Shown piece after piece: positions 115 through 41,533 of a DNA stretch of 41,533 nucleotides. Positions within the stretch are counted from its first letter, which is position 1, and every line of letters begins with the position of its first letter. A program made the position numbers and the translations under genes. The DNA comes from a virus. The stretch lies in the IMG/VR virus record IMGVR_UViG_3300045988_141214, positions 1 through 41,533 of that record, one strand, 5' to 3'. A model generated the notes under the pieces. That model had not been told where the DNA came from and did no database searches. It worked only from the letters and a program-made list of their open reading frames with translations.

Positions 115-537
115 TCAGCCCTGATCGGCCTCCCCGCCCACATCCCTCTTCGACCAGCGCGCCTCCGCTGCCTTCTGGGCGCGCTCGCATCTCCGCTTGT
201 ACCCTTCGACTCCATCGTTCACGACGAAGCACCCGAGGTATTCGCGCTTCCCGTCATTCACGATCTCGCAAAGCCCCTCGGCCCTCAGGTCGGAGACGAA
301 CGCCATGCACTCCTTGATGGAGTCGAAGCCGAGCCTGCGGGCCAGCAGCGTCCAGCCGCGCTCACCCGTCACGTTGAGCATATAGAACGGCTCACTGGCC
401 TGCTGTGAGGCGCAGGCGCACACGAGCCGGAGCACGCGCCCCAGCCCCTCGTCTCCATAGTCGTAGGCGATGCCGTCGAGCGACTGGTCAAACGTTATGG
501 GGAGGTTCACGTACCGGAGCTTAACGTCACCTGCCAT
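115..537 (-). CDS. DUF4373/DnaD-like replication-associated protein (tentative)
   Basis: 140-aa ORF. The N-terminal pattern (YVNLPITFDQSLDGIAYDYGDEGLGRVLRL...) resembles the Lin1244/DUF4373 N-terminal domain. It is the last gene of the early operon and abuts the iteron array. Confidence 0.5.
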   Translation of the reverse strand: MAGDVKLRYVNLPITFDQSLDGIAYDYGDEGLGRVLRLVCACASQQASEPFYMLNVTGERGWTLLARRLGFDSIKECMAFVSDLRAEGLCEIVNDGKREYLGCFVVNDGVEGYKRRCERAQKAAEARWSKRDVGGEADQG

Positions 538-709
538 CTACGATCCTCCCCACCGGACGGAACGTGAAGTCGGTCACGACGTAGGACCCCGCGCTCGCCT
601 CGGTAACGCGCAGGCGGTTGCCCGCGTACTTCACCCCGATGCTCCGGCGCTGTAGGAGGGCCACGAGACGGAGCAGGTCGGCCCTCGAGATCATGTAGTT
701 GTCGGCCAT
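527..709 (-). CDS. hypothetical protein
   Basis: 60-aa ORF tightly packed in the leftward operon, with overlapping start and stop codons. Confidence 0.45.
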   Translation of the reverse strand: MADNYMISRADLLRLVALLQRRSIGVKYAGNRLRVTEASAGSYVVTDFTFRPVGRIVDGR

Positions 710-951
710 CAGCCGAGCACCTCCCTTATCTCACCGACCATCTGCTCGAAGGCGTGGAAGCGCCCGAGGTCGGTGCCTCCCATGGGGTCCTCGCGCCAGC
801 TCTCGAGGATGGTCGATGCTTTGTCGTGGTACTTGTCCGCGATGCTGGAGACTGCCCCCAGCTTCGCCTTGATTACCGCCAGCTCGCACTCCAGCTCGCG
901 GTTGCGCTCTATGAGGGCGTGGTTGTCTTGTATGACCTGATCGTTAAGCAT
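709..951 (-). CDS. hypothetical coiled-coil protein
   Basis: 80-aa ORF with heptad-like, charged composition and a stop/start junction with its neighbours. Confidence 0.5.
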   Translation of the reverse strand: MLNDQVIQDNHALIERNRELECELAVIKAKLGAVSSIADKYHDKASTILESWREDPMGGTDLGRFHAFEQMVGEIREVLG

Positions 952-1255
952 CGTGGATCACCCTCGCCCCGCAGTTCGGGCAGAAGTTGAACCACCTGCC
1001 GCTCTCGTGCTCGCGCTTCGCGCCGCACTCGGAGCAGATGCAGCCCCACGTGCATTGACCGTCATCCCATCTCGTATCACGCATGCGGCACGTCCGCACC
1101 CCTGCATCCACCATATCCGCCAGCAAGAGCACGGCGTCACCACGCGTCGAGACGCCCAAGCATCGCATGAGCGCGGGCCAGTTGAGGTCTGGCAGCGAGG
1201 CAATCGCGCGCAGGCGGCGGGCGCACTTCCTGCGGGCATATTCGTTGATTGTCAT
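944..1255 (-). CDS. Zn-ribbon protein (C-terminal CSECG...FCPNCGARV)
   Basis: 103-aa ORF with two CxxC pairs at the C-terminus. The FCPNCGARV tail is shared with the next gene. Confidence 0.55.
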   Translation of the reverse strand: MTINEYARRKCARRLRAIASLPDLNWPALMRCLGVSTRGDAVLLLADMVDAGVRTCRMRDTRWDDGQCTWGCICSECGAKREHESGRWFNFCPNCGARVIHDA

Positions 1256-1725
1256 TCCTCCACCACCCTCGCGCCGCAGTTCGGGCAGAACTTAATCAGC
1301 GGCGCAATGGCGTCTACTTCATAAGTTCCGTCTTCGAGAATGTAGTAATCCGCATTTGCTGCCTCATGCGTTCCAAACAGCACGTGGCAGTTAGAGCACA
1401 TGAAACGCGCGTCCTTTTCAATCTCACGGATGAGCAGGCCGAAGCGTTCGTCCTTCGCGCTCTCCCTAGCTCTCCTTGACAGGATGTACTTTTCCCCTGC
1501 AAAAAACTCATTCAGTGAAAGCGGCTCGATACGGCACGTCCGCTCCTCCGGCTCTATGAGGTCGGCGATACGCTGGCAAAGTTGCTCCGTGAAAGTGTGG
1601 AAGTTGTTGCTCATTTTCGATACGTCCATGCCGCAGGCCTCGGCAACGTAGTTCGGCCAGTCCGATCCCGGAGCCATATCGCGCAATCTTGCTGCCGCCT
1701 CGCGGCGCTCGTCGTTAGTCGGCAT
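1252..1725 (-). CDS. Zn-ribbon protein (CSNC...FCPNCGARV), paralogous C-terminus to 944-1255
   Basis: 157-aa ORF with two CxxC pairs, an identical FCPNCGARV motif and a 4-nt overlap with the downstream gene. Confidence 0.6.
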   Translation of the reverse strand: MPTNDERREAAARLRDMAPGSDWPNYVAEACGMDVSKMSNNFHTFTEQLCQRIADLIEPEERTCRIEPLSLNEFFAGEKYILSRRARESAKDERFGLLIREIEKDARFMCSNCHVLFGTHEAANADYYILEDGTYEVDAIAPLIKFCPNCGARVVEE

Positions 1726-1885
1726 GCTCGATTCTCCTTCCGCAATAGGGGCAGAAGGTGAAATCGTCCGCCCACACCTGCTCCCATGATTTGCCGCATT
1801 TGGAGCACTCGTAGACCTTGACGGTCCCGCGCGTCCTCACGGTGTCGGTCAGCTCGGCCTCGCACGTCTCATCGTCAGTCGGCAT
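1715..1885 (-). CDS. small Zn-ribbon protein (56 aa, below ORF-track cutoff)
   Basis: Hand translation gives MPTDDETCEAELTDTVRTRGTVKVYECSKCGKSWEQVWADDFTFCPYCGRRIEHAD. The ATG is at 1885 and the TAA at 1717-1715. It fills the gap between 1725 and 1875. The CxxC...CxxC ribbon is related to the neighbouring genes. Confidence 0.55.
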   Translation of the reverse strand: MPTDDETCEAELTDTVRTRGTVKVYECSKCGKSWEQVWADDFTFCPYCGRRIEHAD

Positions 1886-2135
1886 GGCAATCACCGTCCT
1901 CTTCGCGCCACCCGGCGCACTTCTCGTACGCCAGCCCGATCTCTCCCATCAGGAATGCCTTGTGCACATCCGTGATGGCCTCGTACAGGGCGTCCGCCAC
2001 CGCGCAGTAGTCCCCGCGCGCGAGCAGGAGGCTTGCGCGGTTGATCTCATCGAACGCCTTCTCTCGGTATATGCGGAAATCGGCCTTGTACGCCCTCGCC
2101 GCGCTCCGCATCGCAAGGTCACTCATCGCACTCAC
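1875..2135 (-). CDS. hypothetical protein
   Basis: 86-aa ORF with operon packing. Confidence 0.5.
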   Translation of the reverse strand: MSAMSDLAMRSAARAYKADFRIYREKAFDEINRASLLLARGDYCAVADALYEAITDVHKAFLMGEIGLAYEKCAGWREEDGDCHAD

Positions 2136-2346
2136 CGTCCCTCCGGTTCCACGAGGAGACAGCGTTCTCCCGCTTCAGCAGGACTTCCGGCCCCGTGGCG
2201 CCGCACTGCCCGCAATACACGTGCCACGTCGGGATGGAGCCGTCCGGCTCGCCGTTGACGTAGCGGTCGATGCCCCCGGCATCCTCAATGGAGAGGTTTC
2301 GAGAGTGCCCGCAGAACGGGCAGGGCTTGAGCTTCTCCATGGTCAT
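2119..2346 (-). CDS. lar: Lar-family restriction alleviation protein
   Basis: 75-aa ORF with the family hallmarks LKPCPFCG ... YCGQCGATGP ... AVSSWNRR. Confidence 0.7.
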   Translation of the reverse strand: MTMEKLKPCPFCGHSRNLSIEDAGGIDRYVNGEPDGSIPTWHVYCGQCGATGPEVLLKRENAVSSWNRRDGECDE

Positions 2347-2558
2347 ACCTCCTTGTAATGTTTTTTCCTGTTGCCGCGCTCGAAGTGGCGGCAGTCCCCG
2401 CCGTCATCGGGTGCGACCGCCATGACCTTGGTCGGGCACTGCATGCAGGCGCACAGCGGGTAGCCCTCGGGGACGGCCTTGACGTACTCGCGGATGAACC
2501 TGACGCGTTCCGGCCATGGCGCGAGGTGGATGCAGTCGGCGCAGCGCCTATCCGTCAT
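2343..2558 (-). CDS. Cys-rich hypothetical protein
   Basis: 71-aa ORF with 7 Cys residues (CADC, CACMQC, C) and a 4-nt overlap with lar. Confidence 0.5.
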   Translation of the reverse strand: MTDRRCADCIHLAPWPERVRFIREYVKAVPEGYPLCACMQCPTKVMAVAPDDGGDCRHFERGNRKKHYKEV

Positions 2559-2718
2559 AGCGCCACCTCTCCAAGTCCATCGCCACCAGCAGGCTGAACA
2601 TGGCGAGGACCAACATGTAGGTCGCCCTCTGCTCGTAGCCGCCTAAGTGCATCACGCACGCGGCGAGCGAGTTGACGATGGCCATGATGCGCATGAGAAC
2701 TTCTATGAACCTACTCAT
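2548..2718 (-). CDS. small membrane protein (56 aa, below ORF-track cutoff)
   Basis: Hand translation gives MSRFIEVLMRIMAIVNSLAACVMHLGGYEQRATYMLVLAMFSLLVAMDLERWRYDG. It has two hydrophobic segments and overlaps both neighbours by 8-11 nt. Confidence 0.45.
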   Translation of the reverse strand: MSRFIEVLMRIMAIVNSLAACVMHLGGYEQRATYMLVLAMFSLLVAMDLERWRYDG

Positions 2719-2998
2719 ACCGCCCCCTACTGCGGTTCCTCTCCTCGCATCGCGCGAGGTACGGCGTCAAGTCGGTCACGCCGAGCGATGCGGCAAGGTT
2801 GCAGGACGCCTGGATGGTGTCGGCGATCTCGTCCAGCACATTCGCCGTCGCGTAGCCGATGTGCGTCACGTCGCGCGGGTCTCGCTGCTTGAACGCCTCC
2901 ACCACCTCGGCGGCCTCCTCGAGCACCTTGAGCGCCTGGGGCTTGGTAGGCGCGGCGCTCGGGAACGTTCGGACGCTGGTCAGTTTCACTCGGGTCAT
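2711..2998 (-). CDS. MazG-like nucleotide pyrophosphohydrolase
   Basis: 95-aa ORF. KVLEEAAEVVEA ... DEIADTIQASCNLAASLG matches the MazG EExxE/DExxD helix pattern. Confidence 0.6.
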   Translation of the reverse strand: MTRVKLTSVRTFPSAAPTKPQALKVLEEAAEVVEAFKQRDPRDVTHIGYATANVLDEIADTIQASCNLAASLGVTDLTPYLARCEERNRSRGRYE

Positions 2999-3498
2999 TC
3001 GGATACCTCCTCAATCAGAAAGTCGATGCATTGCCTGCATTTGCGCAGGTCCTCGGTACCGTTCTTGCGGGGCCAGCGCCACAGGTACTTGAACGCGCAG
3101 CCCCACCAGTAGAAGGCCATCGGGGACAGCTCGTTGCCGTCCATCACGGCCTTGAGCGCGTCCTTGGCCTCGATGCCGCCCGATGAGTAGTGGGCGGGGT
3201 GGGAAACGGCGTCGGGCTTCGCAGTTGATTTCGCAGCTATGTCGCAGTCTTGTCGCACCTCGCCGATTGACTCACCCTGCTTACGGAGCATTTCCGTGAC
3301 TTTGAGCGCCCGCCCGAGCCTGCGCCCGTGCGTCGCCTCGTATCCGTAAGGGATTCCGAGAGCGAATATTCCGCACTCGTCGGTCACGTGCTTCGCCCCG
3401 ATGCCGAATATGCAAGACGGGCTGTTCCCGTCGATGCCGTCGGCGTCGAAGTTCTTACATGCCTCGCACCGGTAATCGCCCACTCCTAACATCGCCAT
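2995..3498 (-). CDS. DUF3310 (SaV-like) domain protein
   Basis: 167-aa ORF. The C-terminal HPAHY...IEAKDA...FKYLWRWPRKNGTEDLRKC pattern is typical of DUF3310. Confidence 0.6.
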   Translation of the reverse strand: MAMLGVGDYRCEACKNFDADGIDGNSPSCIFGIGAKHVTDECGIFALGIPYGYEATHGRRLGRALKVTEMLRKQGESIGEVRQDCDIAAKSTAKPDAVSHPAHYSSGGIEAKDALKAVMDGNELSPMAFYWWGCAFKYLWRWPRKNGTEDLRKCRQCIDFLIEEVSE

Positions 3499-3499
3499 G

Positions 3500-3832
3500 T
3501 CATTCCTCCTCGAACTCTTTCAGCCCCAGCTCGACCTTGCACTTGTCGGCGTAGGCCTGAATCTTCTTCTCGTAGAACTCGACGCGGTTCCTAGGGGTGC
3601 GGTGCATCCACTTAGCCTTGAATCGGGCCACCGCGTCGCGGTAATGCTCCTCGCCAGTGTCGCCCGACAGCCAGAAGTCGAGGCTCTGGGCGAGTCCGCC
3701 GTAGCCGCACACGGAGAACTCTCCGCCGCAGAACAGGTCGTGGTACAGCTCGTCCAGCTCGTGGTCATGCCACTTTCCGTCGGCCTCCTGGAGGTTCGGC
3801 CATGTGTAGTCGAAAAGGACTCCGCCGCTCAT
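3500..3832 (-). CDS. hypothetical protein
   Basis: 110-aa ORF with operon packing. Confidence 0.55.
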   Translation of the reverse strand: MSGGVLFDYTWPNLQEADGKWHDHELDELYHDLFCGGEFSVCGYGGLAQSLDFWLSGDTGEEHYRDAVARFKAKWMHRTPRNRVEFYEKKIQAYADKCKVELGLKEFEEE

Positions 3833-4023: not shown

Positions 4024-4856
4024 TCGGCCACCTCCACTCCAGCAAGCGCCTTGGCACGGCGGATGATGTCGTGGGCCTTGTACACGGCGCAGTTGCCCTG
4101 CTCATAGGCTGGGCATCCCTCGCCCTCATCGCACGGCCTATCATAGAAGCCGAAGTACTCGCAGAAATTCTTCGCGGTGTCCTCCTCAAGCCGCTCCCAG
4201 CTGTCGGGGCGGGTGTGAGTGAGGTATTCGCCCTTCAATCCGGTCGAGCGTTCGAAGTGGAACTCGAGCAGTACTTCCCCCCATCTGTTGATGTGCTTAA
4301 CCTCATGCGGCTCGTCGGGTGTGTCGGTGACCGCCGGTATGATCCACACCGTGTCGCCCTCGTGGATGGGAACGCCGTCGGCGTCCAGCACGGGACAGGC
4401 ATGGGTGAGGCGATTCGCGTCCATGCAGAACGCATCGCAACCGTCCTGCCGCAAATCGACGCATCTGGTTGACGGATGGACAGCCGTCACGATCCCGCTC
4501 TGGCCGTTGGGCTCGTACACCGTGTCGCCCACCTTGATCTCCACGCCGTCGGCGTCCAGCACCTTCGGCGCGGGGCGATTCACGCGCTCCCCGAGGCTGA
4601 GGTGCATATGATTGCCGTAGTTGTTCCAAATGGCGGCTGCGTTTTCGGCGATGTACACCTCGATGATTTCACCGCCAAGACCATCAACCCCATCACCGAT
4701 CATCACAGGCTCGCCGTCCTCGAAGCGCGGCCACATGTCGAGAATCTGGCGCTCGCGCTCGGAGGGCACCTGCTTGCTCGTGCTTGCCGCCTCGGCCATC
4801 GACTCGCACACTTTGCGGGACTTGGCCATGTTCCGCTCGTCGAACTCCCTTATCAT
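4020..4856 (-). CDS. hypothetical protein with internal VLDADGVxIxxGDTV repeats and a Cys-rich C-terminus
   Basis: 278-aa ORF. The repeats are at aa 96-113 and 155-171. The C-terminal part reads DSWERLEEDTAKNFCEYFG...C...C...C. Confidence 0.6.
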   Translation of the reverse strand: MIREFDERNMAKSRKVCESMAEAASTSKQVPSERERQILDMWPRFEDGEPVMIGDGVDGLGGEIIEVYIAENAAAIWNNYGNHMHLSLGERVNRPAPKVLDADGVEIKVGDTVYEPNGQSGIVTAVHPSTRCVDLRQDGCDAFCMDANRLTHACPVLDADGVPIHEGDTVWIIPAVTDTPDEPHEVKHINRWGEVLLEFHFERSTGLKGEYLTHTRPDSWERLEEDTAKNFCEYFGFYDRPCDEGEGCPAYEQGNCAVYKAHDIIRRAKALAGVEVAE

Positions 4857-5203
4857 TCGCCTCTCCTTTTCCTAATCCTCTTGAACCGCTCGTCTCCCAG
4901 CGCGCGCATGTCCAGCACCTTGCGCTGGCAGGCCCATTCGGAGCGCCCCATCAGCTCCGACGCCTCGCGCATCGTCATGCGCTGCCGAAGCTCGGCGAGG
5001 CGGTCTATCTCCTGGGTTGTCCACACGCGGCATCCCTTGGTGAGCCCCAGCTCGCGCGCATGGACCACGGTCGCCGAGACGGTGCGGCCCAGCACCTTTG
5101 CGATACGCTCGACCGGGGCCTTGCCGTACGCCTCGCGCAGCACGTCATCCTGCACCTCGGTCCAAGGCCTTCGGTTGTGGGTCAGCGGCCATGTCGCCTC
5201 CAT
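4853..5203 (-). CDS. Myb/SANT-like HTH repeat protein
   Basis: The start is trimmed to the ATG at 5203 (TGATG overlap with the upstream stop), because the track's N-terminal extension is Arg/Gly-rich shadow. Two W[TS]xx[EQ][DE]...R...L repeats are present (RPWTEVQDDVL..., RVWTTQEIDRL...). Confidence 0.55.
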   Translation of the reverse strand: MEATWPLTHNRRPWTEVQDDVLREAYGKAPVERIAKVLGRTVSATVVHARELGLTKGCRVWTTQEIDRLAELRQRMTMREASELMGRSEWACQRKVLDMRALGDERFKRIRKRRGE

Positions 5204-5454
5204 CAGTACTCCTTCCAGTACGCGCAGGAGTCCACCTGCATGTCCACGCGGGCGTCCTCTATGTAGTCCACGACACACAGCCACGAGTCGAAGTCCTGCG
5301 GCTCGCTCTTTAGCTTCACGTCGCAGATGCCCATGTCGCAGCACTCCTCCAGGCAATGGCGGCACCACATGCAAACGCGGTCGCGGTCGGGCTCGCCGTG
5401 GGCAGCGTCCACCTGTTCCGCCGTCACGTTGTCGGGCAGGTTGAAATCACCCAT
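5203..5454 (-). CDS. Cys-rich hypothetical protein
   Basis: 83-aa ORF with an acidic composition and 7 Cys residues. Confidence 0.5.
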   Translation of the reverse strand: MGDFNLPDNVTAEQVDAAHGEPDRDRVCMWCRHCLEECCDMGICDVKLKSEPQDFDSWLCVVDYIEDARVDMQVDSCAYWKEY

Positions 5455-5773
5455 GCGAACCCCTCCTGAGCCCTGGCCTGATCGCAGTTCCGAGGGCCTT
5501 CAAGTGCCTCCTTCGGGCCACGACAGCGCCGTTGGCCCTTTTCAGGGAAGCGGCTATCACGTCGTCTGTGACAATGCCGCTCATGCGCGTAAGGGCGCGG
5601 TCGTCATCTGCGGTCCACGGGCGCTCGCGCCTGACGCCCAGCATCGAGGCCCTGTTGCGCACACCGGCGACAGAGCGGCCAAGCGCGACGGCTATCTTCT
5701 TGGTTGGGACGGACTCGTATGTGCGGCGAATGATCTCATCCTCCACGGACGACCATTTCTGACCGACCTTCAC
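5447..5773 (-). CDS. Myb/SANT-like HTH repeat protein (paralogue of 4853-5203)
   Basis: 108-aa ORF with a GTG start. Repeats are QKWSSVEDEII...RNRASMLGV and RPWTADDDRAL...RRRHLKAL. Confidence 0.55.
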   Translation of the reverse strand: MKVGQKWSSVEDEIIRRTYESVPTKKIAVALGRSVAGVRNRASMLGVRRERPWTADDDRALTRMSGIVTDDVIAASLKRANGAVVARRRHLKALGTAIRPGLRRGSHG

Positions 5774-5931
5774 TCAGTCGCCTCCCTTTTCTCTAACAAG
5801 GCGTCGAGGTTGGCCTGAAAAAGCTCGCACTGGCCTGTCGCCAGCGCGAGCTCATCCGCAAGCTCCCCGCATTTCTTCTTGTAGTACTCAAGCTCACCGA
5901 GCACGTACTGCTCGCAAGTGCGGGCCTCCAT
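5770..5931 (-). CDS. small coiled-coil protein (53 aa, below cutoff)
   Basis: MEARTCEQYVLGELEYYKKKCGELADELALATGQCELFQANLDALLEKREATE. The ATG overlaps the TAA of the restored mIHF frame. This is the only coding-looking part of the track ORF 5770-6540. Confidence 0.45.
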   Translation of the reverse strand: MEARTCEQYVLGELEYYKKKCGELADELALATGQCELFQANLDALLEKREATE

Positions 5932-6238
5932 TACTCGCCGAACTTGTCGATGAGGGCCTTGTACTGGCGGGCACCGAGACCTGCGAGCGGGCGCTCTTGG
6001 CGATGCCGATCTTGTCCATGAGCTTATCGGCGCTGTTCTTGCCCATGCCGGGAAGGGCGGCGATGACGTCGCGGACGCGCATGCGCTGCAAGCCATCGTC
6101 GTCCAGGACAGACTTGAGCGAGCGTTCGCCGTGTTTGAGCTGCTGCTTTGTCTCGGCGTAGCGGATTCGGGCATCCATGGCCTTGCGCTGGAACTTGGCG
6201 AGGTCTTCGGCGGTCTGGGTCGGGGGCGTATTAGGCAT
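5931..6238 (-). pseudogene. mIHF-like (actinobacterial integration host factor) gene interrupted by a 1-nt frame break near 5987
   Basis: The frame starting at 6238 gives ...LKHGERSLKSVLDDDGLQRMRVRDVIAALPGMGKNSADKLMDKIGIAKSAR and then junk. The -1 frame continues with LAGLGARQYKALIDKFGE and a TAA at 5933-5931. Joined, the two pieces reproduce the conserved mIHF C-terminus (...RRLRGLGxRQxKALLEKFG). Confidence 0.7.
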
Positions 6239-6410
6239 GATGCACTACCTTCTTTCGCTTGGGCTTGTTCATGGCGTACCAGGCCTTTCCGTATTCCGCC
6301 TTGCATGAGCGGCACATGGCCTGGTATCCGTCCTTGCTGTTCTTCTTCTTGTGGAACTCGGATATGGGCAGCAACTTTCCGCACTACCCGCATCGCTTCA
6401 CCTCTGGCAC
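6231..6410 (-). pseudogene. CxxC...CxxC Zn-ribbon protein with an in-frame TAG inside the first CxxC
   Basis: Hand translation from the GTG at 6410 gives VPEVKRCG*CGKLLPISEFHKKKNSKDGYQAMCRSCKAEYGKAWYAMNKPKRKKVVHHA. The TAG is at 6386-6384 and the TAA at 6233-6231. The motif CxxCGxxLPxSEF...SKDGYQxxCRxC is a recurrent phage Zn-ribbon module. Confidence 0.6.
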
Positions 6411-6421
6411 GACTTGCCCCC

Positions 6422-6844
6422 CTAGAACGGAATGTCTTCGGGATACAGGTCGGGCGTCTGAGACGGCGCCTGACACTGCGGTGCCGCCTGCTGATACTGC
6501 TGTTGGGGCTGCCCGCCGTCCTGACGGGACATGAACTCAAGCTCCTCGGCGATGACCTCGAGCTTGCTGCGGCGCTGGCCGTCCTTCTCCCACTGGGAGT
6601 ATCGGAGCTTGCCCTCTATTGCGACCTTGGACCCCTTGTGCAGATACTGGGCCAGCTTCTCCGCACGGGTGCCGAACATGGTGCAGGAGACCCAGTTTGG
6701 TCGGTCGGTCCAGGTGCCGTCCTGCTGCTTCACACGGTCGTTCACAGCCACCTGAAAACTCAGAACGGCCATGCCACCCGACGTGGCGCGCAGCTCGGGC
6801 TCGGTGCCGAGATTGCCGCTGATATTCACACGATTGATGCTCAT
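6422..6844 (-). CDS. ssb: single-stranded DNA-binding protein
   Basis: 140-aa ORF with an OB-fold N-terminus (NRVNISGNLGTEPELR...), a Q/P-rich linker and the canonical acidic tip ...EDIPF followed by a stop. Confidence 0.9.
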   Translation of the reverse strand: MSINRVNISGNLGTEPELRATSGGMAVLSFQVAVNDRVKQQDGTWTDRPNWVSCTMFGTRAEKLAQYLHKGSKVAIEGKLRYSQWEKDGQRRSKLEVIAEELEFMSRQDGGQPQQQYQQAAPQCQAPSQTPDLYPEDIPF

Positions 6845-7047
6845 TTGTTCCTCTCTCTATGGAGCTTGATAACGGACCTCATGTAGCCCTCTACGTCCCT
6901 CGCCTGCACTTCGGTGAGGTCCTTGAGGCGATCTACGCCCGCATAAAGGAGGAGGAGGCGCTTGGCCCCCTCCCTGTCCTTGCCGACGGCCCCGGTGAAC
7001 TCGTCGGCCATCGCCTGTATCTCGCTGAAATCGACGCCGCTAGGCAT
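6841..7047 (-). CDS. hypothetical protein
   Basis: 68-aa ORF lying between recT and ssb. Confidence 0.5.
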   Translation of the reverse strand: MPSGVDFSEIQAMADEFTGAVGKDREGAKRLLLLYAGVDRLKDLTEVQARDVEGYMRSVIKLHRERNK

Positions 7048-14512: not shown

Positions 14513-14554
14513 AGCCCCGCTCCCCCACAGTTTGGCGACCTGGGAAGCGGGGCT
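14513..14554 (+). terminator. hairpin downstream of the lipoprotein gene (weak terminator candidate)
   Basis: AGCCCCGCT (14513-14521) pairs with AGCGGGGCT (14546-14554), a 9-bp stem. The loop is 24 nt and there is no U-tract. Confidence 0.25.
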
Positions 14555-14594
14555 AGAGGGCCAACCACACACACGGTATGGAGGCGTATATATT

Positions 14595-15797
14595 ATGCCA
14601 CGGAAAACGCGCGCCTCATGGGGCAGCAACAAACCCGCCCGCCGCAAGGGATACCGCACCCTGCGCTACTGGGCGGACCTGCACGACGGGCGCGGTTACA
14701 TGCGCCATACGATGACGGTGGAGGGAAGCAAGCGCGACGGGGACCGCAAGCTCGCTGAGCTGCGATTGCTCCATGGCGAGGACAAGCCGGTGCCGACCAT
14801 AGAACAGGCCTGGGATTCATGGATTCTGCCCGAATACAACGCGATGCACCAGAGCTACCTCGAGAACCCGCGCCCGAGCAAGCGCGGAAGCCGAGAGAGC
14901 GTGAAGACGAGCACGTACGACCAGGTTATGTCCACATGGAGGGTCCACGTCGGCCCGCGTTGGGGCGACGTATATGCGGACGCCGTAAAATACAGCGACA
15001 TTCAGGAATGGCTCGACGGTATGACGGAGCAGGTCGGGAAACGCGCGCTATCGCAGCTGTCGCTCATACTGGACAAGTGCATGATTAACGAGTTTATCGA
15101 CAAGAACGTCGCGTCATACAAGTACCGCATGCCGACCAAGGCGAAGAAGCATGACGACGGCGGCGTGTGGTCGCTCGAGGAAATTCATTCGGAGATCCTG
15201 CCCGCAGTTAAGGGCAGGCCATGTGAGGCGGCTGTCATTCTATCGGCGATAGCCGGATGCAGGACGGGAGAGGCAGCCGCGCCGATGCTGTCCGAGGTGT
15301 ACAAGATGGAAGTAAACGGCATGACCTTCGCTTGCGCCGACATACCCAGGCAGGTGGACAACGAGGGAATCATATCGAGCGAGAACGACCTAAAGAACGT
15401 GTGGAGCCCGAGGTCCGTCGTAGTTCCTCCGCCGTGGAGCATACGTCTGCTCGAGATCAGGGACGAACTTGAGGCGAACGGGCTGCAATGGCTCAGCGAC
15501 AAGGGAACTTGTGAGCCGATGAGTCAGAGGACGATTCGCCGAGACTTCAACAAGTGCTTGAAGAAGGCCGAAGTGGAGCCACGTCAGTTCCGCGCGCTTC
15601 GCCGCTCCTGGCGTACATGGATCTCGAGCAAGGGAATCAACGACAAGATTCTCGAGAAGATGATGGGCCATTCTGACGGCACGACAACGGGCCGCTACTA
15701 CCTCAAAGCGGACGCAAAAATCATCGTTGAAGAGATGGCGAGAGCGCACGATTGGGGTGAGTTGGCGACCCGTTTAAATGACATTAGGGACAAATAG
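14595..15797 (+). CDS. int: tyrosine integrase
   Basis: The ATG at 14595 has GGAGG 10 nt upstream; the track start at 14532 is a TTG. The C-terminal catalytic region reads ...FRALRRSWRTWISS...MMGHSDGTTTGRYYL (R, H..R, H, Y pattern). It is adjacent to the repressor module. Confidence 0.85.
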   Translation: MPRKTRASWGSNKPARRKGYRTLRYWADLHDGRGYMRHTMTVEGSKRDGDRKLAELRLLHGEDKPVPTIEQAWDSWILPEYNAMHQSYLENPRPSKRGSRESVKTSTYDQVMSTWRVHVGPRWGDVYADAVKYSDIQEWLDGMTEQVGKRALSQLSLILDKCMINEFIDKNVASYKYRMPTKAKKHDDGGVWSLEEIHSEILPAVKGRPCEAAVILSAIAGCRTGEAAAPMLSEVYKMEVNGMTFACADIPRQVDNEGIISSENDLKNVWSPRSVVVPPPWSIRLLEIRDELEANGLQWLSDKGTCEPMSQRTIRRDFNKCLKKAEVEPRQFRALRRSWRTWISSKGINDKILEKMMGHSDGTTTGRYYLKADAKIIVEEMARAHDWGELATRLNDIRDK

Positions 15798-16220: not shown

Positions 16221-16298
16221 TTACTTGAGACGGGCTATCAGGTAGCTCGCCAGCGCGACGGCGCACAGCGAGCAGATGATGATGACGCCGCCCGCCAT
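16221..16298 (-). CDS. 25-aa single-TM peptide at the end of the lysis cassette
   Basis: MAGGVIIICSLCAVALASYLIARLK. Its ATG overlaps the endolysin TGA (TGATG), and GAGGG lies 9 nt upstream. Confidence 0.35.
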   Translation of the reverse strand: MAGGVIIICSLCAVALASYLIARLK

Positions 16299-17254
16299 CA
16301 GAAGCGGCCCTCGTTGAGCGCGCGCTGCATGGCCTTGACGGTCAGGGAGCCCGCGTCGAGCTTGCCGTCCTCCACCTTCGCGCCGCTCTCGGCCTTGAAG
16401 TGGCGGATCATGGCGTTGATGGTGTCGGGGCCGATGAAGCCATCGACGGGGACACCGCAGGCGCGCTGGATCGCGCCGATGGTCTGCGAGCCCGGCTGCT
16501 CGCCCCAGGGCGCGGAGAACTCCCAGCCGCCCGTGCAGGCCTTTAGGCGGTGCTTGTGCTGCGGGTTCTGGCGGGAAATCTTGCCGTCCTTGAACGGGCA
16601 GCCGAGCACCTCCTGGATGCGGCGCGTGGTGGCCTCGCCCCAGTAGCCGTCCACGGCAAGGCCATGCGGCTCGGGCGCGGGCTGCGGGGCGGGCGCGGGC
16701 TGGGGTGCCGGGGCGGGCGCGGGCTGGGGTGCCGGGGCGGACGCGCCGATGCCGAAGCAGGCGAGGATGCCCTTTGCGAGCTCGTCCATCTGCGTCTCGA
16801 ACTTGGCGGCGTCCCCTGCGTCGGAGATGAAGCCGCACTCAACCAAGCGGTAGTTCACGCCAGCGCGGGCGGCTCGGTTGACGTTGGCGAGGTCGGAGCG
16901 ACCGACGATGGTCTTGGAGCGACCTGGGAAGAACCCGCCGATGAACGCCGCCAGGGCGTTGTCTACGGCGTCGGGGCTGAAGCCGTCCTTGATGATGACG
17001 TGGCCGCCCTTGGCACCCGCGCCCGCGCTGTCCATGTGCAGCTCGATGACGGGGACGCCCTTGGGGCAGTGGCCGCGACCGATGCCGTTGTCCTTGTACC
17101 AGTTGCGGGAAGTGTCGCCGACCTGCACCTCGGAGCCGCCGAGGGCCTGCATGCGGGCGGCGAGCTTGCGGACCTGGTCCGCCTCGCGGAAGCCGTTGGC
17201 GCATGCGCCGGGGTCGCCAGCGCCGTGGCCGCAGATCACGAATACCTTAGCCAT
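16298..17254 (-). CDS. endolysin: N-acetylmuramoyl-L-alanine amidase (Amidase_3-like) plus PAPQ linker plus two PG-binding-like repeats
   Basis: 318-aa ORF. The N-terminal domain has VFVICGHGAGDPGA...ELHMDS...ECGFISD. The C-terminus has two xVDGxxGxxT motifs (LAVDGYWGEATTRRIQ, VPVDGFIGPDTINAMI). Confidence 0.85.
   Translation of the reverse strand: MAKVFVICGHGAGDPGACANGFREADQVRKLAARMQALGGSEVQVGDTSRNWYKDNGIGRGHCPKGVPVIELHMDSAGAGAKGGHVIIKDGFSPDAVDNALAAFIGGFFPGRSKTIVGRSDLANVNRAARAGVNYRLVECGFISDAGDAAKFETQMDELAKGILACFGIGASAPAPQPAPAPAPQPAPAPQPAPEPHGLAVDGYWGEATTRRIQEVLGCPFKDGKISRQNPQHKHRLKACTGGWEFSAPWGEQPGSQTIGAIQRACGVPVDGFIGPDTINAMIRHFKAESGAKVEDGKLDAGSLTVKAMQRALNEGRF
16673..16738. repeat. GC-rich tandem repeat encoding the endolysin Pro/Ala/Gln linker
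   Basis: The 24-bp unit GGGCGCGGGCTGGGGTGCCGGGGC occurs at 16691-16714 and 16715-16738, preceded by an 18-bp partial copy at 16673-16690. Confidence 0.9.
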
Positions 17255-18013: not shown

Positions 18014-18067
18014 AAAATCCCAGACCGTTCCGCCCTGAAATGCGGGGATACGGTCTGGGATTTTTTT
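18014..18067 (+). terminator. strong intrinsic-terminator-like hairpin just upstream of the recombinase gene
   Basis: ATCCCAGACCGT (18017-18028) pairs with ACGGTCTGGGAT (18050-18061), a 12-bp stem with an inner CCGC/GCGG extension. It is followed by T7 (18061-18067) on the + strand and preceded by A4, so the - strand reads it with a T4 tract. Confidence 0.6.
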
Positions 18068-18085
18068 CGTTGAAAGGACTATGAG

Positions 18086-18967
18086 ATGCTGTTTGAAACC
18101 GCCATCGAGATGTACATGGCCGACCGCGCCAAGCGCCTTCGCGCCACCACACTCGAGGGCTACGAGAGCGCCATCCGCAAGCACATCGCCCCGGCGTGGA
18201 CGGGGCGCGAGGTCGAGTCGATCACGCACGAGGAGCTGCAATCGTGGGTGGACTCCATCGAGCTTCCCGGCGCGGCCGACAAGGCATTCAAGACCTTCCG
18301 CCAGATCTACCGCTGGACGATCCGCAAGCACCAGCTGCGCATCTGGGACGTGACGCAGGGCATCGAGCTGCCGAAGCACAGACCGGAGAAGCGCGCCCGC
18401 ATGACCCCGGAGGAGCTGCGCGAGATGCTGCGCGCCATCGAGGGGACCGTCGTGGAGGCGGTCGGCATCGCCATCGCGGCGCTCGGCCTACGGCCCTCGG
18501 AGGGAGCGGGGCTCGACTGGTCGGACATCGACTGGCGCACGGGGTGGACGCACATCCAGCGCGGCGCGCACACGGTTAAGGGCGGCGCCGTCGTGGAGTA
18601 CGCGTGCAAGACGGAGCTGTCCGACAGATGGCTCAAGCTGCCGCGATGGGCGCTCGCTCAGCTCCGCAGACTGCGAGGAAACCGCAGGTCGGGCAGGCTG
18701 CGCGGGGAACTCTCCCCGAAGTGCATCTACTCGCGCCTCAAGCGCATATTCGTGCGGATCGGCCTGCCGGAGATCTCGGTGCAGGCCCTGCGGCACACGT
18801 GGGCGACCATCGCCATCGAGGCCGGGGCGGCGCTCGCGGACGTGGCGGTCGCGCTCGGCCACACGAGCGTGGAGATGTGCAGGCGCCACTACCTGCTGAG
18901 CACGAGGGCGGTGGTTGAGCGAGCGCAGGCCGCCTTCTCGGGGGCGGTGGTTCCGCTGTTGGCGTGA
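18086..18967 (+). CDS. XerC/D-like tyrosine recombinase; candidate shufflon invertase
   Basis: 293-aa ORF with an N-terminal SAM-like domain. The catalytic pattern is GLRPSEG (R), ALRHTWAT (H-x-x-R type box) and LGHTSVEMCRRHY (H...Y). Its TGA is immediately followed by the first recombination-site repeat. Confidence 0.85.
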   Translation: MLFETAIEMYMADRAKRLRATTLEGYESAIRKHIAPAWTGREVESITHEELQSWVDSIELPGAADKAFKTFRQIYRWTIRKHQLRIWDVTQGIELPKHRPEKRARMTPEELREMLRAIEGTVVEAVGIAIAALGLRPSEGAGLDWSDIDWRTGWTHIQRGAHTVKGGAVVEYACKTELSDRWLKLPRWALAQLRRLRGNRRSGRLRGELSPKCIYSRLKRIFVRIGLPEISVQALRHTWATIAIEAGAALADVAVALGHTSVEMCRRHYLLSTRAVVERAQAAFSGAVVPLLA

Positions 18968-18980
18968 TTCCGTAGACCAG
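18968..18980 (+). repeat. recombination-site repeat 1 (TTCCGTAGACCAG)
   Basis: It is identical over 13 nt to site 4 and shares the 7-nt core TTCCGTA with sites 2, 3 and 5. Confidence 0.8.
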
Positions 18981-19118
18981 ATGCCGTTGAAGAACGACAG
19001 CATCAAGAAGTTGGTGTTCCAGATTTACAAGTCAGGGAGCACAAGCTATTTCCAAGCCGGTGCCAGCCTCCCAGAAGGCGGGACGAAAACAATCAACATC
19101 GACACTTGGACGAATTAG
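18969..19118 (+). other. silent tail-fibre tip cassette A (49 codons plus TAG)
   Basis: From TCC GTA the frame reads SVDQMPLKNDSIKKLVFQIYKSGSTSYFQAGASLPEGGTKTINIDTWTN*. It has no start codon or RBS of its own. Confidence 0.7.
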
Positions 19119-19120
19119 TC

Positions 19121-19131
19121 TTCCGTATCCC
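19121..19131 (+). repeat. recombination-site repeat 2 (TTCCGTATCCC)
   Basis: It is an 11-nt identity with site 3 and with the reverse complement of 20037-20047. It starts 2 nt after the cassette A TAG (19116-19118); the in-frame TCC GTA codons start 3 nt after it. Confidence 0.8.
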
Positions 19132-19313
19132 TTTCCGCGCGGCGCGAGGGGGCGGCCGATGCGTTCGTGGGGGCCAACAAGACCGCCGGGCACTGCGTTG
19201 ACGTTATGGCGCAAAGCTCGCTCGGCAGATACATCCTGTTCGCGACCGTCGACTCACTCGAGCTGTGGGACGGGGCTAAGAACACGAAAGTTTGGCGCCT
19301 CAACACTAAATAG
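19122..19313 (+). other. silent tail-fibre tip cassette B (63 codons plus TAG)
   Basis: SVSLSARREGAADAFVGANKTAGHCVDVMAQSSLGRYILFATVDSLELWDGAKNTKVWRLNTK*. It has no start codon or RBS. Confidence 0.7.
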
Positions 19314-19315
19314 CC

Positions 19316-19326
19316 TTCCGTATCCC
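19316..19326 (+). repeat. recombination-site repeat 3 (TTCCGTATCCC)
   Basis: It is identical to site 2 and starts 2 nt after the cassette B TAG (19311-19313); the in-frame TCC GTA codons start 3 nt after it. Confidence 0.8.
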
Positions 19327-19511
19327 GACTGTCTTTCGACGGCATCAATGGCGTCGAGTTTGTCAACGCACTTCGCTCCGGCTATCCGGGCATAGCATTT
19401 CAGATCGCGGATGGTAAGACGTATCTGCTCTACACGACGGCGGACGGTCTTGTCCTCTACGATCGCAATGAGGCAAGAGCGGTCGGCAGCATCCAGTGGA
19501 ACAAGGCCTAG
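19317..19511 (+). other. silent tail-fibre tip cassette C (64 codons plus TAG)
   Basis: SVSRLSFDGINGVEFVNALRSGYPGIAFQIADGKTYLLYTTADGLVLYDRNEARAVGSIQWNKA*. It resembles cassette B (G[KR]xY[IL]L[FY]xTxDxLxL[YW]D). Confidence 0.7.
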
Positions 19512-19513
19512 CT

Positions 19514-19526
19514 TTCCGTAGACCAG
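19514..19526 (+). repeat. recombination-site repeat 4 (TTCCGTAGACCAG)
   Basis: It is identical to site 1 and starts 2 nt after the cassette C TAG (19509-19511); the in-frame TCC GTA codons start 3 nt after it. Confidence 0.8.
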
Positions 19527-19760
19527 CTCCCCTTCGTTGCAAGATACGGTTCCCAAAGCTCTCTGGACGACCTCAAATACGGGCTGGTACCCTTCGACAG
19601 CAGTACGCCGGGCGCCACCTCTTCGCAGTACGGCATCGTGCTCGCGTATATGACCGAATCCGAGGCATGGGTCTACCAGGTGGCGTTCTCGACAAACGGC
19701 AAGGTCCACAAGCGCCGCAAGATCAACGCGGCTGGCTGGACGGAATGGGAGCTGCTATAG
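19515..19760 (+). other. silent tail-fibre tip cassette D (81 codons plus TAG)
   Basis: SVDQLPFVARYGSQSSLDDLKYGLVPFDSSTPGATSSQYGIVLAYMTESEAWVYQVAFSTNGKVHKRRKINAAGWTEWELL*. It resembles the expressed tip (S[DS]QYG...; W near the C-terminus). It lies tail-to-tail with the expressed gene end at 19780. Confidence 0.7.
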
Positions 19761-19779
19761 GAGGCTTCCGGTCTCGACG

Positions 19780-20310
19780 CTACTCCTTTATCCACGAGCC
19801 GCCCGACAGCTTCCAAGACGCGAACCCCCTGGAATAACCGAACTCGATGAAGGCGCCGTATTGGTCAGAGTGCTTGTACGCGATTCCGCACATCGCCTGG
19901 CCATTCGAATCGGCCACGGTCCACAGGATTGTGGGCGTGAACGTCTTGATGGAGGGCCACGTCCTCGTGAGCATCAGGTCCGTGGTCTCCGATTGGGACT
20001 GCCAGAGCGCCCGCTTCGATTCGATATTTCCGATTTGGGATACGGAATCCCGGAGCGCATTGACTGCGGCGGTCAGGTCGGCCACGCCCTGCTCGAGTCG
20101 GTTCAGCTCGGCCGCCGTGACGGGGGTGCCGCCGCCGCTGCCGTCATTCCACGTCTTCTTGGCGAAGCTCACGGCACTCGCGAGCGTGCCGGCGGTGTAG
20201 CCCAGCTCCGGGATGACGGTCGGCACGTCCATGAGGCCAGGGGCCTCGGGCACGACGGACATTCCGGGGTCGATCTCGGGGGTCTGCTCGATGATGGTCT
20301 CTTCTGCCAT
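19780..20310 (-). CDS. tail fibre / receptor-binding tip protein carrying the expressed variable C-terminus
   Basis: The start is trimmed to the ATG at 20310, with AGGAGA 7 nt upstream. The 176-aa product has a constant part ...GTPVTAAELNRLEQGVADLTAAVNALRDSV, and the switch point lies at the inverted site. Confidence 0.75.
   Translation of the reverse strand: MAEETIIEQTPEIDPGMSVVPEAPGLMDVPTVIPELGYTAGTLASAVSFAKKTWNDGSGGGTPVTAAELNRLEQGVADLTAAVNALRDSVSQIGNIESKRALWQSQSETTDLMLTRTWPSIKTFTPTILWTVADSNGQAMCGIAYKHSDQYGAFIEFGYSRGFASWKLSGGSWIKE
20037..20051 (-). repeat. recombination-site repeat 5, inverted, inside the expressed fibre gene (GGGATTCCGTATCCC on the - strand)
   Basis: The + strand reads gggatacggaatccc. 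The - strand encodes R-D-S-V-S-Q in the fibre frame. TCC GTA (Ser-Val) is in the same codon phase as in all four cassettes. Confidence 0.85.
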
Positions 20311-20324
20311 TTTCGGTCTCCTGT

Positions 20325-20936
20325 CTAGACGGTGAACTTGCTCCACTCGCCCGTGGGTGCGGGGAACGTCGTGGATTGCGGGTAGGTCGTCGCGGACGGG
20401 TACAGCGCCGCGCCCTGCTTGGCGGAGTCCCAGCGGTTGATGCTCCTGACCGCCGTTCCCGCCGTCTCCACCCACATGCCGCCGTCCACGCGGTCGGCGT
20501 AGGGCGGCTCGGACTGCTGGATGAAGTAGGGCTTGGTCAGGCGCGCTGCGGCGTTGGCCTGGGCCGCCGCCGCTTTGGCCGCGTTCGCCTGCGTGTTCGC
20601 GTTTGCAGCGTTGGCGTTCGCGGACTGCGCGGCAGACGATGCCGAGAGCGCGGCGGTGTTCGCGGCCTTTGTTGCGGCGTCGCGCTCGGCGTCCTTGGCT
20701 GCGCGCTCAGCCTCATTTGATTGGCGGATTGCCTCGTTAGTGCCGCGCTCTAGCTCAGACTCCTTGCGCGCATTCTCGTTGGCGACGCGAGCCGCCTCGG
20801 CCTTGCCGTCCGCACCCGCGATCATGTACGTCTGTTTTCCGCCGTCGCTCTGGTTGACCTCGATGCCCCAGACCTCGCCGTCGAACGTCACGTCCGATGG
20901 CGCGCGCACGAGGAACTTGTCTTCAGAACCTGCCAT
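20325..20936 (-). CDS. tail fibre-like protein with an Ala/Asn-rich coiled coil
   Basis: The start is trimmed to the ATG at 20936, with GGAG 7 nt upstream; the track start at 20996 is a TTG. A central low-complexity A/N/Q coiled coil is typical of fibre shafts. Confidence 0.6.
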   Translation of the reverse strand: MAGSEDKFLVRAPSDVTFDGEVWGIEVNQSDGGKQTYMIAGADGKAEAARVANENARKESELERGTNEAIRQSNEAERAAKDAERDAATKAANTAALSASSAAQSANANAANANTQANAAKAAAAQANAAARLTKPYFIQQSEPPYADRVDGGMWVETAGTAVRSINRWDSAKQGAALYPSATTYPQSTTFPAPTGEWSKFTV

Positions 20937-41459: not shown

Positions 41460-41479
41460 AATGTTTGGCATACACGACG

Positions 41480-41533
41480 CATATGCTAGCCGCATTGCTA
41501 CGTGCATATGCTAGCCGCATTGCTACGTGCATA
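41480..41533 (+). repeat. right part of the 25-bp tandem repeat array
   Basis: Full units at 41480-41504 and 41505-41529, then a partial CATA. nt 41496-41533 are identical to nt 1-38. Confidence 0.95.

Follow-up and report, generated by a model that had tools for sequence, protein, structure and literature searches.

Rin shufflons were named in Bifidobacterium prophages (Mavrich et al. 2018, PMC6109161), where a tyrosine invertase gene, rin, accompanies 11-bp rix sites of sequence TTCCCTAACCC, variable gene parts (Rv) and a constant part (Rc), and where inversion variants seen at the level of sequencing reads all lay at rix sites. A second case comes from clade 1 prophages of Eggerthella lenta (Buttimer et al. 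2022, PMC8778435), in which Rin is followed by small tandem Rv genes; the 8-bp ttccgtat flanks every Rv on either side, and Rc contains a copy in inverted orientation. Here we examine positions 18086-20310 of the IMG/VR virus record IMGVR_UViG_3300045988_141214, which was analyzed over its whole length of 41,533 nucleotides and is called the window below. In this locus, a recombinase gene and four silent cassettes face a fifth cassette that forms the C-terminal part of the last gene of the tail module. A preliminary description, made without database searches, had proposed that the recombinase inverts the DNA between a site inside that gene and four opposite sites, and so swaps C-termini. It had missed that such a system is known already under the name Rin shufflon. 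The mechanism it arrived at is the published one, with matching recombinase type, site and architecture, and on these three sequence characters the locus is placed in the Rin family. We regard it as very probable that the locus is a Rin-type shufflon, working by Rin inversion between the internal site, rix5, and the four opposite ones.

Layout of the locus and likeness to known inversion systems

All the coordinates and strands reported earlier were verified on the sequence. The recombinase gene, rin (18086-18967, + strand), encodes an armless, Xer-like tyrosine recombinase of 293 residues, predicted to be an invertase, and its final GCG TGA abuts the first site, rix1 (18968-18978, +, TTCCGTA GACC), whose left arm GGCGTGA is the 3' end of rin. 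Four silent cassettes follow on the same strand: Rv-A (18969-19118, 49 codons, reading SVDQMPLKND...TWTN and then stop), Rv-B (19122-19313, 63 codons), Rv-C (19317-19511, 64 codons) and Rv-D (19515-19760, 81 codons). The last three are headed by rix2 (19121-19131, +, TTCCGTA TCCC), rix3 (19316-19326, +, TTCCGTA TCCC) and rix4 (19514-19524, +, TTCCGTA GACC). On the opposite strand lies the 176-residue gene (20310-19780, -), made of Rc (20048-20310, -, about 88 codons up to the core, ending ...AAVNALRD) and the cassette now expressed, Rv-E (19780-20046, -, 88 codons, SVSQIGNIES...WIKE and then stop). The two meet at rix5 (20037-20051, -, GGGA TTCCGTA TCCC, core at 20047-20041), where GGGATTCCGTATCCC (20051-20037) encodes R-D-S-V-S. 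The arms of rix5 are perfectly palindromic (GGGA/TCCC) and its core is asymmetric.

The claim that TTCCGTA heads four cassettes in one phase, inverted relative to the site in the expressed gene, was thus confirmed. T TCC GTA specifies Ser-Val in one codon phase at all five sites; rix2 to rix4 each stand 2-3 nucleotides past a TAG stop, and rix1 directly past the TGA of rin. Fragments A to D have lengths that are multiples of 3, contain no internal stops, start with S-V-(S/D) and end in TAG. The 11-mer TTCCGTAKMCC has 5 exact matches in the window, every one inside 18968-20047, and with 1 mismatch allowed it has 6, against a mean of 1.35 in 100 shuffles (0/100 reached 6). The bare 7-mer TTCCGTA has 4 further copies elsewhere in the window, so that the signal of the sites is their clustering, their common codon phase and their position right after stop codons.

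A decayed sixth site (19766-19776, +, TTCCGGT CTCG, TTCCGGTCTCG) is found 5 nucleotides past the stop of D, where D and the expressed cassette converge. Of the 7 core positions it keeps 5, the right arm is gone, and its spacing after the stop is like that of the intact sites (consensus TAGCC followed by TTCCGTA). It is probably non-functional, and probably a relic of a site or of a lost cassette. Directly past the expressed gene, the stretch 19761-19779 contains no intact rix, only this decayed TTCCGGT at 19766 on the opposite strand.

The E. lenta octamer ttccgtat is matched at 8 of 8 positions by sites 2, 3 and 5 and at 7 of 8 by sites 1 and 4, which read TTCCGTAG. Both loci have tandem, mutually dissimilar Rv and a separate integrase, and both point to a host in the Coriobacteriia, although here that host is probably Collinsella. 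The E. lenta Rc is "much larger" and many of its Rv have H-type lectin domains, whereas the window Rc-Rv product has 176 residues and heads without a Pfam domain. In E. lenta a repeat stands just past the Rc stop; in the window there is only the decayed site (19766) near that place.

With the Bifidobacterium breve and B. longum prophages integrated at dnaJ2, the window shares an armless Xer-like tyrosine recombinase (here a predicted invertase) flanking the array, a rix upstream of each Rv, a constant Rc N-terminus with variable C-termini of a tail protein, here putatively receptor-binding, and a location between the tail and lysis modules. The B. breve rix, TTCCCTAACCC, agrees with the window form TTCCGTATCCC at 9/11 positions. 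Sizes differ, with an Rc of 168 residues and Rv of 95-100 residues in Bifidobacterium against about 90 and 49-88 here, and so do the numbers of invertible partners, 2-3 against 4. The Bifidobacterium locus also has a second, directly oriented rix past the gene's 3' end, permitting inversions that do not touch Rc. Collinsella-type arrays are without it, so that one convergent junction is always kept; the second rix is missing from the window and likewise from the related arrays where their cassettes converge. It is present in both published systems, and we treat its absence here as a variant feature, not a disqualifying one. Inversion has been seen at the read level in the Bifidobacterium system, whereas the window phage is known from assemblies.

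Among deposited phages, the best match to the window Rin is the recombinase of Bifidobacterium phage PMBT6 (MK932884, our locus L027), with 34% identity over 290 residues, the full length (2e-50). In PMBT6 (locus 4462-6858), this Rin homologue is the "integrase" of the tail module, and four TTCCGTAACCC sites, at 5338 (+), 5761, 6052 and 6348 (-), agreeing with the window site at 10/11 positions, head small "hypothetical" genes. The sites are not annotated in the record, and the locus looks like a Rin shufflon missed by annotation. It illustrates a more general point, that an "integrase" in a tail module together with a string of small "hypothetical" open reading frames should be read as a Rin shufflon.

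The preliminary description had drawn its parallels elsewhere, to the R64 shufflon with Rci and sfx sites and to the Gin/Cin/Min switches. The first parallel holds at the level of function. Like the R64/IncI shufflon, in which Rci acts at sfx sites in pilV, the window has a tyrosine recombinase, many short sites and a swapped C-terminus of one surface-recognition protein. In R64, the sfx site consists of a 7-bp core between a left arm that is not conserved and a right arm that is; a like pattern is seen in the window lineage, with a 7-bp core, a right arm that is mostly TCCC, and a left arm that depends on the class of site. However, R64 is a plasmid and its shufflon acts on an adhesin of the conjugative pilus, whereas the window target is a phage tail gene, in a genome with holin, endolysin, tape-measure and integrase, and R64 segments are bounded by inverted sites, whereas the window cassettes have head-to-tail direct sites facing one inverted site. 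A scan of the window for the sfx consensus (GTGCCAATCCGGT...) found none with fewer than 3 mismatches and 7 with 3 mismatches, against 13.7 expected by chance, and among NCBIfam profiles Rin had no Rci-specific match, only sub-threshold ones of Xer type.

The second parallel fails on the class of recombinase. Gin of Mu, Cin of P1, Min of p15B and Pin of e14 likewise belong to phage-encoded inversion systems that exchange tail-fibre C-termini and alter host range, Min with multiple segments. Their enzymes are serine invertases, which act at gix/cix/mix sites of 26 bp with a crossover of 2 bp and depend on an enhancer bound by Fis, whereas the recombinase adjoining the window array is of the tyrosine type (PF00589) and its sites are 11-15 bp with a 7-bp asymmetric core.

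Recombinase, cassettes and site architecture

The Rin assignment was examined by profile searches. Pfam finds Phage_integrase (6.9e-15, residues 105-270) and Phage_int_SAM_3 (5.2e-10, residues 3-57), with no extra N-terminal or arm-binding domain. NCBIfam gives matches to XerA, XerD and XerC only, all sub-threshold and far below the family cut-offs, and the best PDB match is XerA, 4a8e, at 1.3e-6. These searches agree with the earlier reading of a 293-residue tyrosine recombinase of XerC/D type whose TGA comes right before site 1. No catalytic residue of the set Arg, Lys, Arg, His and Tyr is missing: in an alignment of 119 rin homologues, R136, K175, R236, H259 and Y269 are invariant. The homologues fall into at least 336 clusters, and the cluster at ≥90% identity has 197 members. 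The phage has a separate integrase gene at 14532-15797 (400/421 residues), beside a gene for an S24-peptidase-type repressor; rin resembles it at 22% identity over 132 residues only.

The cassettes were said earlier to lack start codons. None has one at its head, and none is conserved in homologues, but A has an in-frame ATG at 18981, 12 nucleotides past the core, and B and D have internal in-frame GTGs; the ATG of A is not conserved in homologues (the A of L016 reads SVSQLPVK). Compared pairwise by BLAST, A to E give a sole match, of 14 residues, between B and C. Each has relatives elsewhere. Homologues of A, with 84-86% identity, are fused to Rc in P0037, P0039, P0080 and P0084, and likewise in L014 and L016. 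A C homologue, 92% identical, is Rc-fused in P0005/L007. Homologues of E (86-90% identity) adjoin the end of rin in P0004 and are fused to different N-termini in P0001 and P0002. B belongs to a large family of heads of ~63-73 residues that includes C too, and D is a distant member (26-31% identity) of a family of ~80-93 residues, Rc-fused in P0016, P0032, P0033, P0042 and others. Ratios of nonsynonymous to synonymous substitution rates (dN/dS) of silent cassettes against their homologues are 0.07-0.33 (A 0.07-0.19, B 0.15-0.32, C 0.22) and the frames are undisrupted. Such values indicate that purifying selection acts on silent cassettes A, B and C; the want of conservation that the preliminary description had named as counter-evidence is not seen.

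A protein search with the 176-residue product found 168 matches. Among the 120 listed, about 117 have an N-terminus in common up to ...LRDSV, with ~55-90% identity, and are unrelated after it, with total lengths of 103-192 residues. When cassettes from these matches and from the related loci were pooled, 156 unique ones fell into at least 42 families that have no BLAST link to each other. In PHROGs, the constant N-terminus only was matched, residues 48-95 of Rc to the N-terminus of phrog_5711 at 2e-10. The variable gene is the last in the tail module, after the tape-measure (PhageMin_Tail) and distal-tail genes, and in the relative L014 a BppU_N protein precedes the Rc homologue. On account of this place in the gene order, we prefer the name receptor-binding or distal tail protein to the earlier one of fibre tip.

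AlphaFold models of predicted local distance difference test (pLDDT) 63 for the P0005 fusion, an Rc-C homologue, and 60 for Rc-E were obtained. The former has a 5-strand beta head with pLDDT 76-85 in that part. These low-confidence models have a long helix at residues 66-92 (P0005 fusion) or 66-100 (Rc-E), so that the crossover codons 88-91 would fall inside the helix or at its end. Heads like those of TP901-1 or of H-type lectin were sought by AlphaFold, Foldseek and Pfam, and neither kind was confirmed in these low-confidence models.

To see which parts of the site stay in place and which move, 62 distinct sites from 12 loci were aligned; they had been sought by the core TTCCGTA, which is therefore constant among them. 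Of 45 inner sites, 40 have TCCC as the right arm, mostly with A or G next. Left arms vary with where the site stands. At Rc sites the left arm is CTCCGGGA in 11/11 from relatives, at rin-proximal sites it is GGCGTGA (6/6 distinct sites tabulated), and at inner sites it is TAGCC, supplied by the stop codon with which the cassette before it ends. Left arms thus stay with Rc or rin, and right arms move with the cassettes, as GACCAG does with A in both the window and L014, from which exchange appears to be confined to the 7-bp core.

In the mechanism we propose, Rin, Xer-like and without an arm-binding domain, would synapse rix5 (20037-20051, -) with any of the sites at 18968, 19121, 19316 and 19514, strand exchange would take place within the 7-bp core TTCCGTA, and the DNA between the two sites would invert. 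With one codon phase at every site, each inversion would fuse the N-terminus of ~90 residues in frame to another head of 49-88 residues, while the head expressed before would turn into a silent cassette. A to D would each lie one inversion from the present state, and the outcome would be a phage population bearing several alternative receptor-binding heads. The earlier forecast, that inversion would join the ~90 N-terminal residues in frame to a new tip of 49-81 residues, was verified as to phase and open frames. We infer that Rin is the enzyme, that the crossover falls within the core, that this phage still switches and that the heads set its host range, the last two points having been put in the same way by the preliminary description.

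A model in which only oppositely oriented sites recombine, by inversion, reaches 48 arrangements, each of which keeps a single convergent, tail-to-tail junction. It predicts that cassettes on the Rc side have one orientation and those on the rin side the other, which holds for all related arrays examined: the window and all 11 related arrays with orientable sites have the form +...+ -...-. The inner sites resemble the sfx sites of R64 in being asymmetric, which may be the reason that direct inner sites are disfavoured as partners for deletion. The asymmetric architecture, with palindromic arms at the Rc site only, gives a handle on how an armless recombinase favours inversion over deletion.

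Rearrangement, cassette exchange and alternative explanations

The comparative loci, numbered with L, are mostly contigs from ENA and Logan. Few came from IMG/VR, GTDB genomes and JGI metagenomes, with 5 found by the Rin query in IMG/VR and 2, 2 and 6, respectively, by the Rc N-terminus. A nucleotide search of deposited phages with the locus gave only a 75-bp match to a Gordonia phage. The relatives carry the same sites as the window, and comparing them for other cassette orders and orientations, as had been proposed, uncovered several. One is L016, which is 97% identical over window 24311-20036 and has Rc joined at the core to an A+B block in Rc orientation, just as recombination between sites 5 and 1 should produce; A and B together have 91% nucleotide identity there. 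L017 and L021 differ by an inverted tail-to-tail pair of cassettes. L028 and L029 come from two samples, each a polished long-read assembly of the same ~2.03-Mb genome. Their flanks are 99.98-100% identical, and between them a 1282-bp cassette block is inverted, with one breakpoint exactly at the Rc core.

This last pair has peculiarities of its own. The Rc core of L029 (4267-6594) carries a 1-bp insertion, TTCCGGTATCCC, fusing Rc to junk sequence, and in L028 (4267-6557) a cassette head of 201 bp is present a second time, inverted. Both features may be real OFF or rearranged states, or else consensus artefacts of reads in mixed orientation. We tried to arrange the two as a clean inversion series and rejected this, as the duplicated partial cassette of L028 and the frameshifted core of L029 make the pair not reducible to one. 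The pair is taken as evidence of heterogeneity only.

Arrays of this lineage have from 3 to 13 heads, and relatives have up to 12 silent cassettes. The largest is L026 (ERZ773155 NODE-10550, 497-3688), with 13 rix sites and heads in 3.2 kb, 2 in Rc orientation and 11 opposite, against 3-5 heads in published Rin shufflons. At the other end is L007 (SRR16555201_19093, 5001-6170), a decayed relative in which Rc is fixed to a C homologue, one more cassette stands in direct orientation and rin is cut to 148 residues. Beyond its lysis genes, bacterial genes for isoprenoids and lipids (Prenyltransf, CTP_transf_1, DXP reductoisomerase) mark that the prophage end is nearby. Several contigs end inside the shufflon, L018 (IMGVR_UViG_3300045988_154154) 5 nucleotides past the Rc core and L025 (ERZ894223 NODE-1023) <60 nucleotides from the core, and those of L015 and L016 end within arrays as well, as would happen where an invertible junction makes the assembly graph branch. 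Assemblies may thus break or turn chimeric at such loci.

The content of the arrays changes too. Cassette B (window 19121-19326) has 95.6-97.1% nucleotide identity to cassettes in L024 (4988-4782) and L023 (991-786). The homology ends at the flanking rix in both, the neighbouring cassettes are unrelated and the position in the array differs, in phages as far apart as L023, whose Rc N-terminus is only 55% identical to that of the window at the protein level. These sequence matches imply that single cassettes have been exchanged horizontally. In L009, both flanks are 93-97% identical to the window and the whole array between rix1 and rix5 is unrelated. L014 (4431-4941) and L015 (4431-4713), from different samples, are 100% identical on both sides, and between two rix one has two cassettes and the other a single unrelated one, which is absent from the L014 array. 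Since inversion leaves the cassette content of an array as it is, there must also be some exchange, at rix sites or close to them.

One candidate for this exchange is that Rv cassettes are mobile, integron-like units, which Rin, alone or with the Rin of a co-resident phage, excises between direct rix and inserts elsewhere. It would explain matches of the B type that end at rix, near-identical phages with different arrays and rix-bounded replacements, and we hold it as a tentative possibility, more doubtful than not. If true, it would mean a common pool of at least 42 unrelated receptor-binding heads among phages with constant regions down to ~55% identity.

Several points weigh against a working Rin shufflon in the window. 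The GACC right arm at sites 1 and 4, where the other sites have TCCC, is a variant. The His of the HxxR box is not conserved, being Q233 in the window Rin, Thr in most relatives and Arg in PMBT6, and homology of rin to the published Rin proteins was traced through PMBT6 as a proxy and the common site only. The exact phage was found in five contigs with identical Rin, Rc-E and upstream gene, all 100% identical there and collinear with the window, and no other arrangement was among them. None of the four predicted fusions has an exact sequence among ~15 billion proteins, and a protein look-up with the reciprocal reading frame joining the rin tail and E had no exact match either. A single arrangement is weak negative evidence, because assemblies report the majority state only. 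As to what the heads do, the Pfam search with them gave no domain and nothing meaningful, and Foldseek with the head models gave nothing below E = 0.3 in PDB or E = 0.015 in BFVD; with the models at pLDDT 60-63, the receptor-binding role rests on gene position and literature analogy.

The single arrangement in five contigs and the want of any predicted fusion in the protein collection would also suit a fossil shufflon, in which the array is frozen in the Rc-E state with no useful switching rate, and the differences between relatives are rare evolutionary events. Decay does occur in the family, as in the 148-residue rin and two cassettes of L007, site 19766 of the window and the 1-bp insertion in the core of L029. 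Yet the window rin is full length and keeps the invariant catalytic residues, the five cores are exact, and the four silent cassettes are open with dN/dS well under 1. A site of the GACC type is the used junction in L014, and two assemblies of one strain with a related prophage differ in arrangement. Read-level variants have moreover been published for the Bifidobacterium system (PMC6109161). Hence, we consider a frozen array unlikely. Lower still we place the idea that the main diversifier is the passing of cassettes from phage to phage, whether through recombination (homologous or illegitimate) or through Rin deletion and insertion at rix, with inversion a lesser process and the array a store. 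The near-identical B of L023 and L024, ending at rix amid unrelated neighbours, the unrelated array between the 93-97% identical flanks of L009 and the rix-bounded replacement between the 100% identical sides of L014 and L015 all speak for it, but they account for cassette content and not for orientation. Flips with a breakpoint at the core and the strict +...+ -...- form need inversion. The two processes are not mutually exclusive; exchange as the leading one seems very improbable. That the recombinase serves some other purpose, such as dimer resolution or as a second integrase, with the repeats and small reading frames being independent genes or remnants, is barely conceivable. Its best profiles are of Xer type, far below the family cut-offs, and its PMBT6 homologue is annotated "integrase", but the phage has a separate integrase at 14532-15797 and the rin stop abuts a rix in every relative. 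The cassettes are also without conserved starts, in phase with the internal site and Rc-fused elsewhere, and the clustering of sites is far beyond chance.

Inversion by Rin between rix5 and the four opposite sites is the reading with which we proceed. Five interchangeable predicted recognition heads, in a lineage with arrays of up to 13 and dozens of head families, bear on how gut phages track variation of the host surface and on the prediction of host range from metagenomes. The kind of system is published, and the value of this case is in a new probable host and in the wider diversity sampled. Site asymmetry and cassette-level horizontal exchange could lend the Rin system more interest than one would gather from the two brief descriptions in print.

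Genome context and probable host

The phage is a temperate siphovirus. Down the - strand, the gene order is tape-measure (PhageMin_Tail), then genes for 866, 370, 95 and 203 residues, then the 176-residue gene; the one directly upstream of Rc (20325-20936, -) has 203 residues as called in public contigs. Past the array and rin come a 113-residue protein, a holin (Phage_holin_1), a 318-residue protein in the endolysin position, the integrase and the S24-peptidase-type repressor.

The host is probably Collinsella, as suggested by the sequence of a related prophage, carried on a 136-kb contig from an uncultured Collinsella sp., and by one Rc homologue annotated in C. intestinalis. Collinsella is an abundant actinobacterium of the human gut, and to our knowledge no cultured Collinsella phage is known. 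A literature search on Collinsella with prophage and shufflon found no description, and none of the searched papers that use the term Rin shufflon mentions Collinsella.

Between the lysis genes and the start of rin is a hairpin (18015-18068) with flanking A-run and T-run, like a bidirectional terminator. Its predicted RNA fold has -37.9 kcal/mol (z = -5.8 against shuffles), and it ends 18 nucleotides upstream of the rin start. A simple terminator scan missed it because the loop is long. L019 and L028, though divergent relatives, keep the stem, CCCAGACCG/CGGTCTGGG, upstream of their rin, and the hairpin may terminate a tail-operon transcript running antisense through the array and rin. The loop has a rix-like half-site, GGGATACGG, which we considered as an autoregulatory site and rejected as chance, as it is not conserved in L019 or L028 though the stem is.

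The window is a circularly closed contig whose ends overlap by 38 bp within a 25-bp tandem repeat. That repeat, TGCTACGTGCATATGCTAGCCGCAT, has at least 5 copies across the window ends (1-80 and 41479-41533), the contig having been cut inside the repeat array, which could be iterons, an origin or a packaging region. An independent contig of 41,611 bp closes by k-mer overlap inside cassette D. A GC-rich tandem repeat at 16668-16745, within the gene for the 318-residue protein (16298-17254, -), encodes a Pro/Ala/Gln linker, APAPQPAPAPAPQPAPAPQPAPEP.

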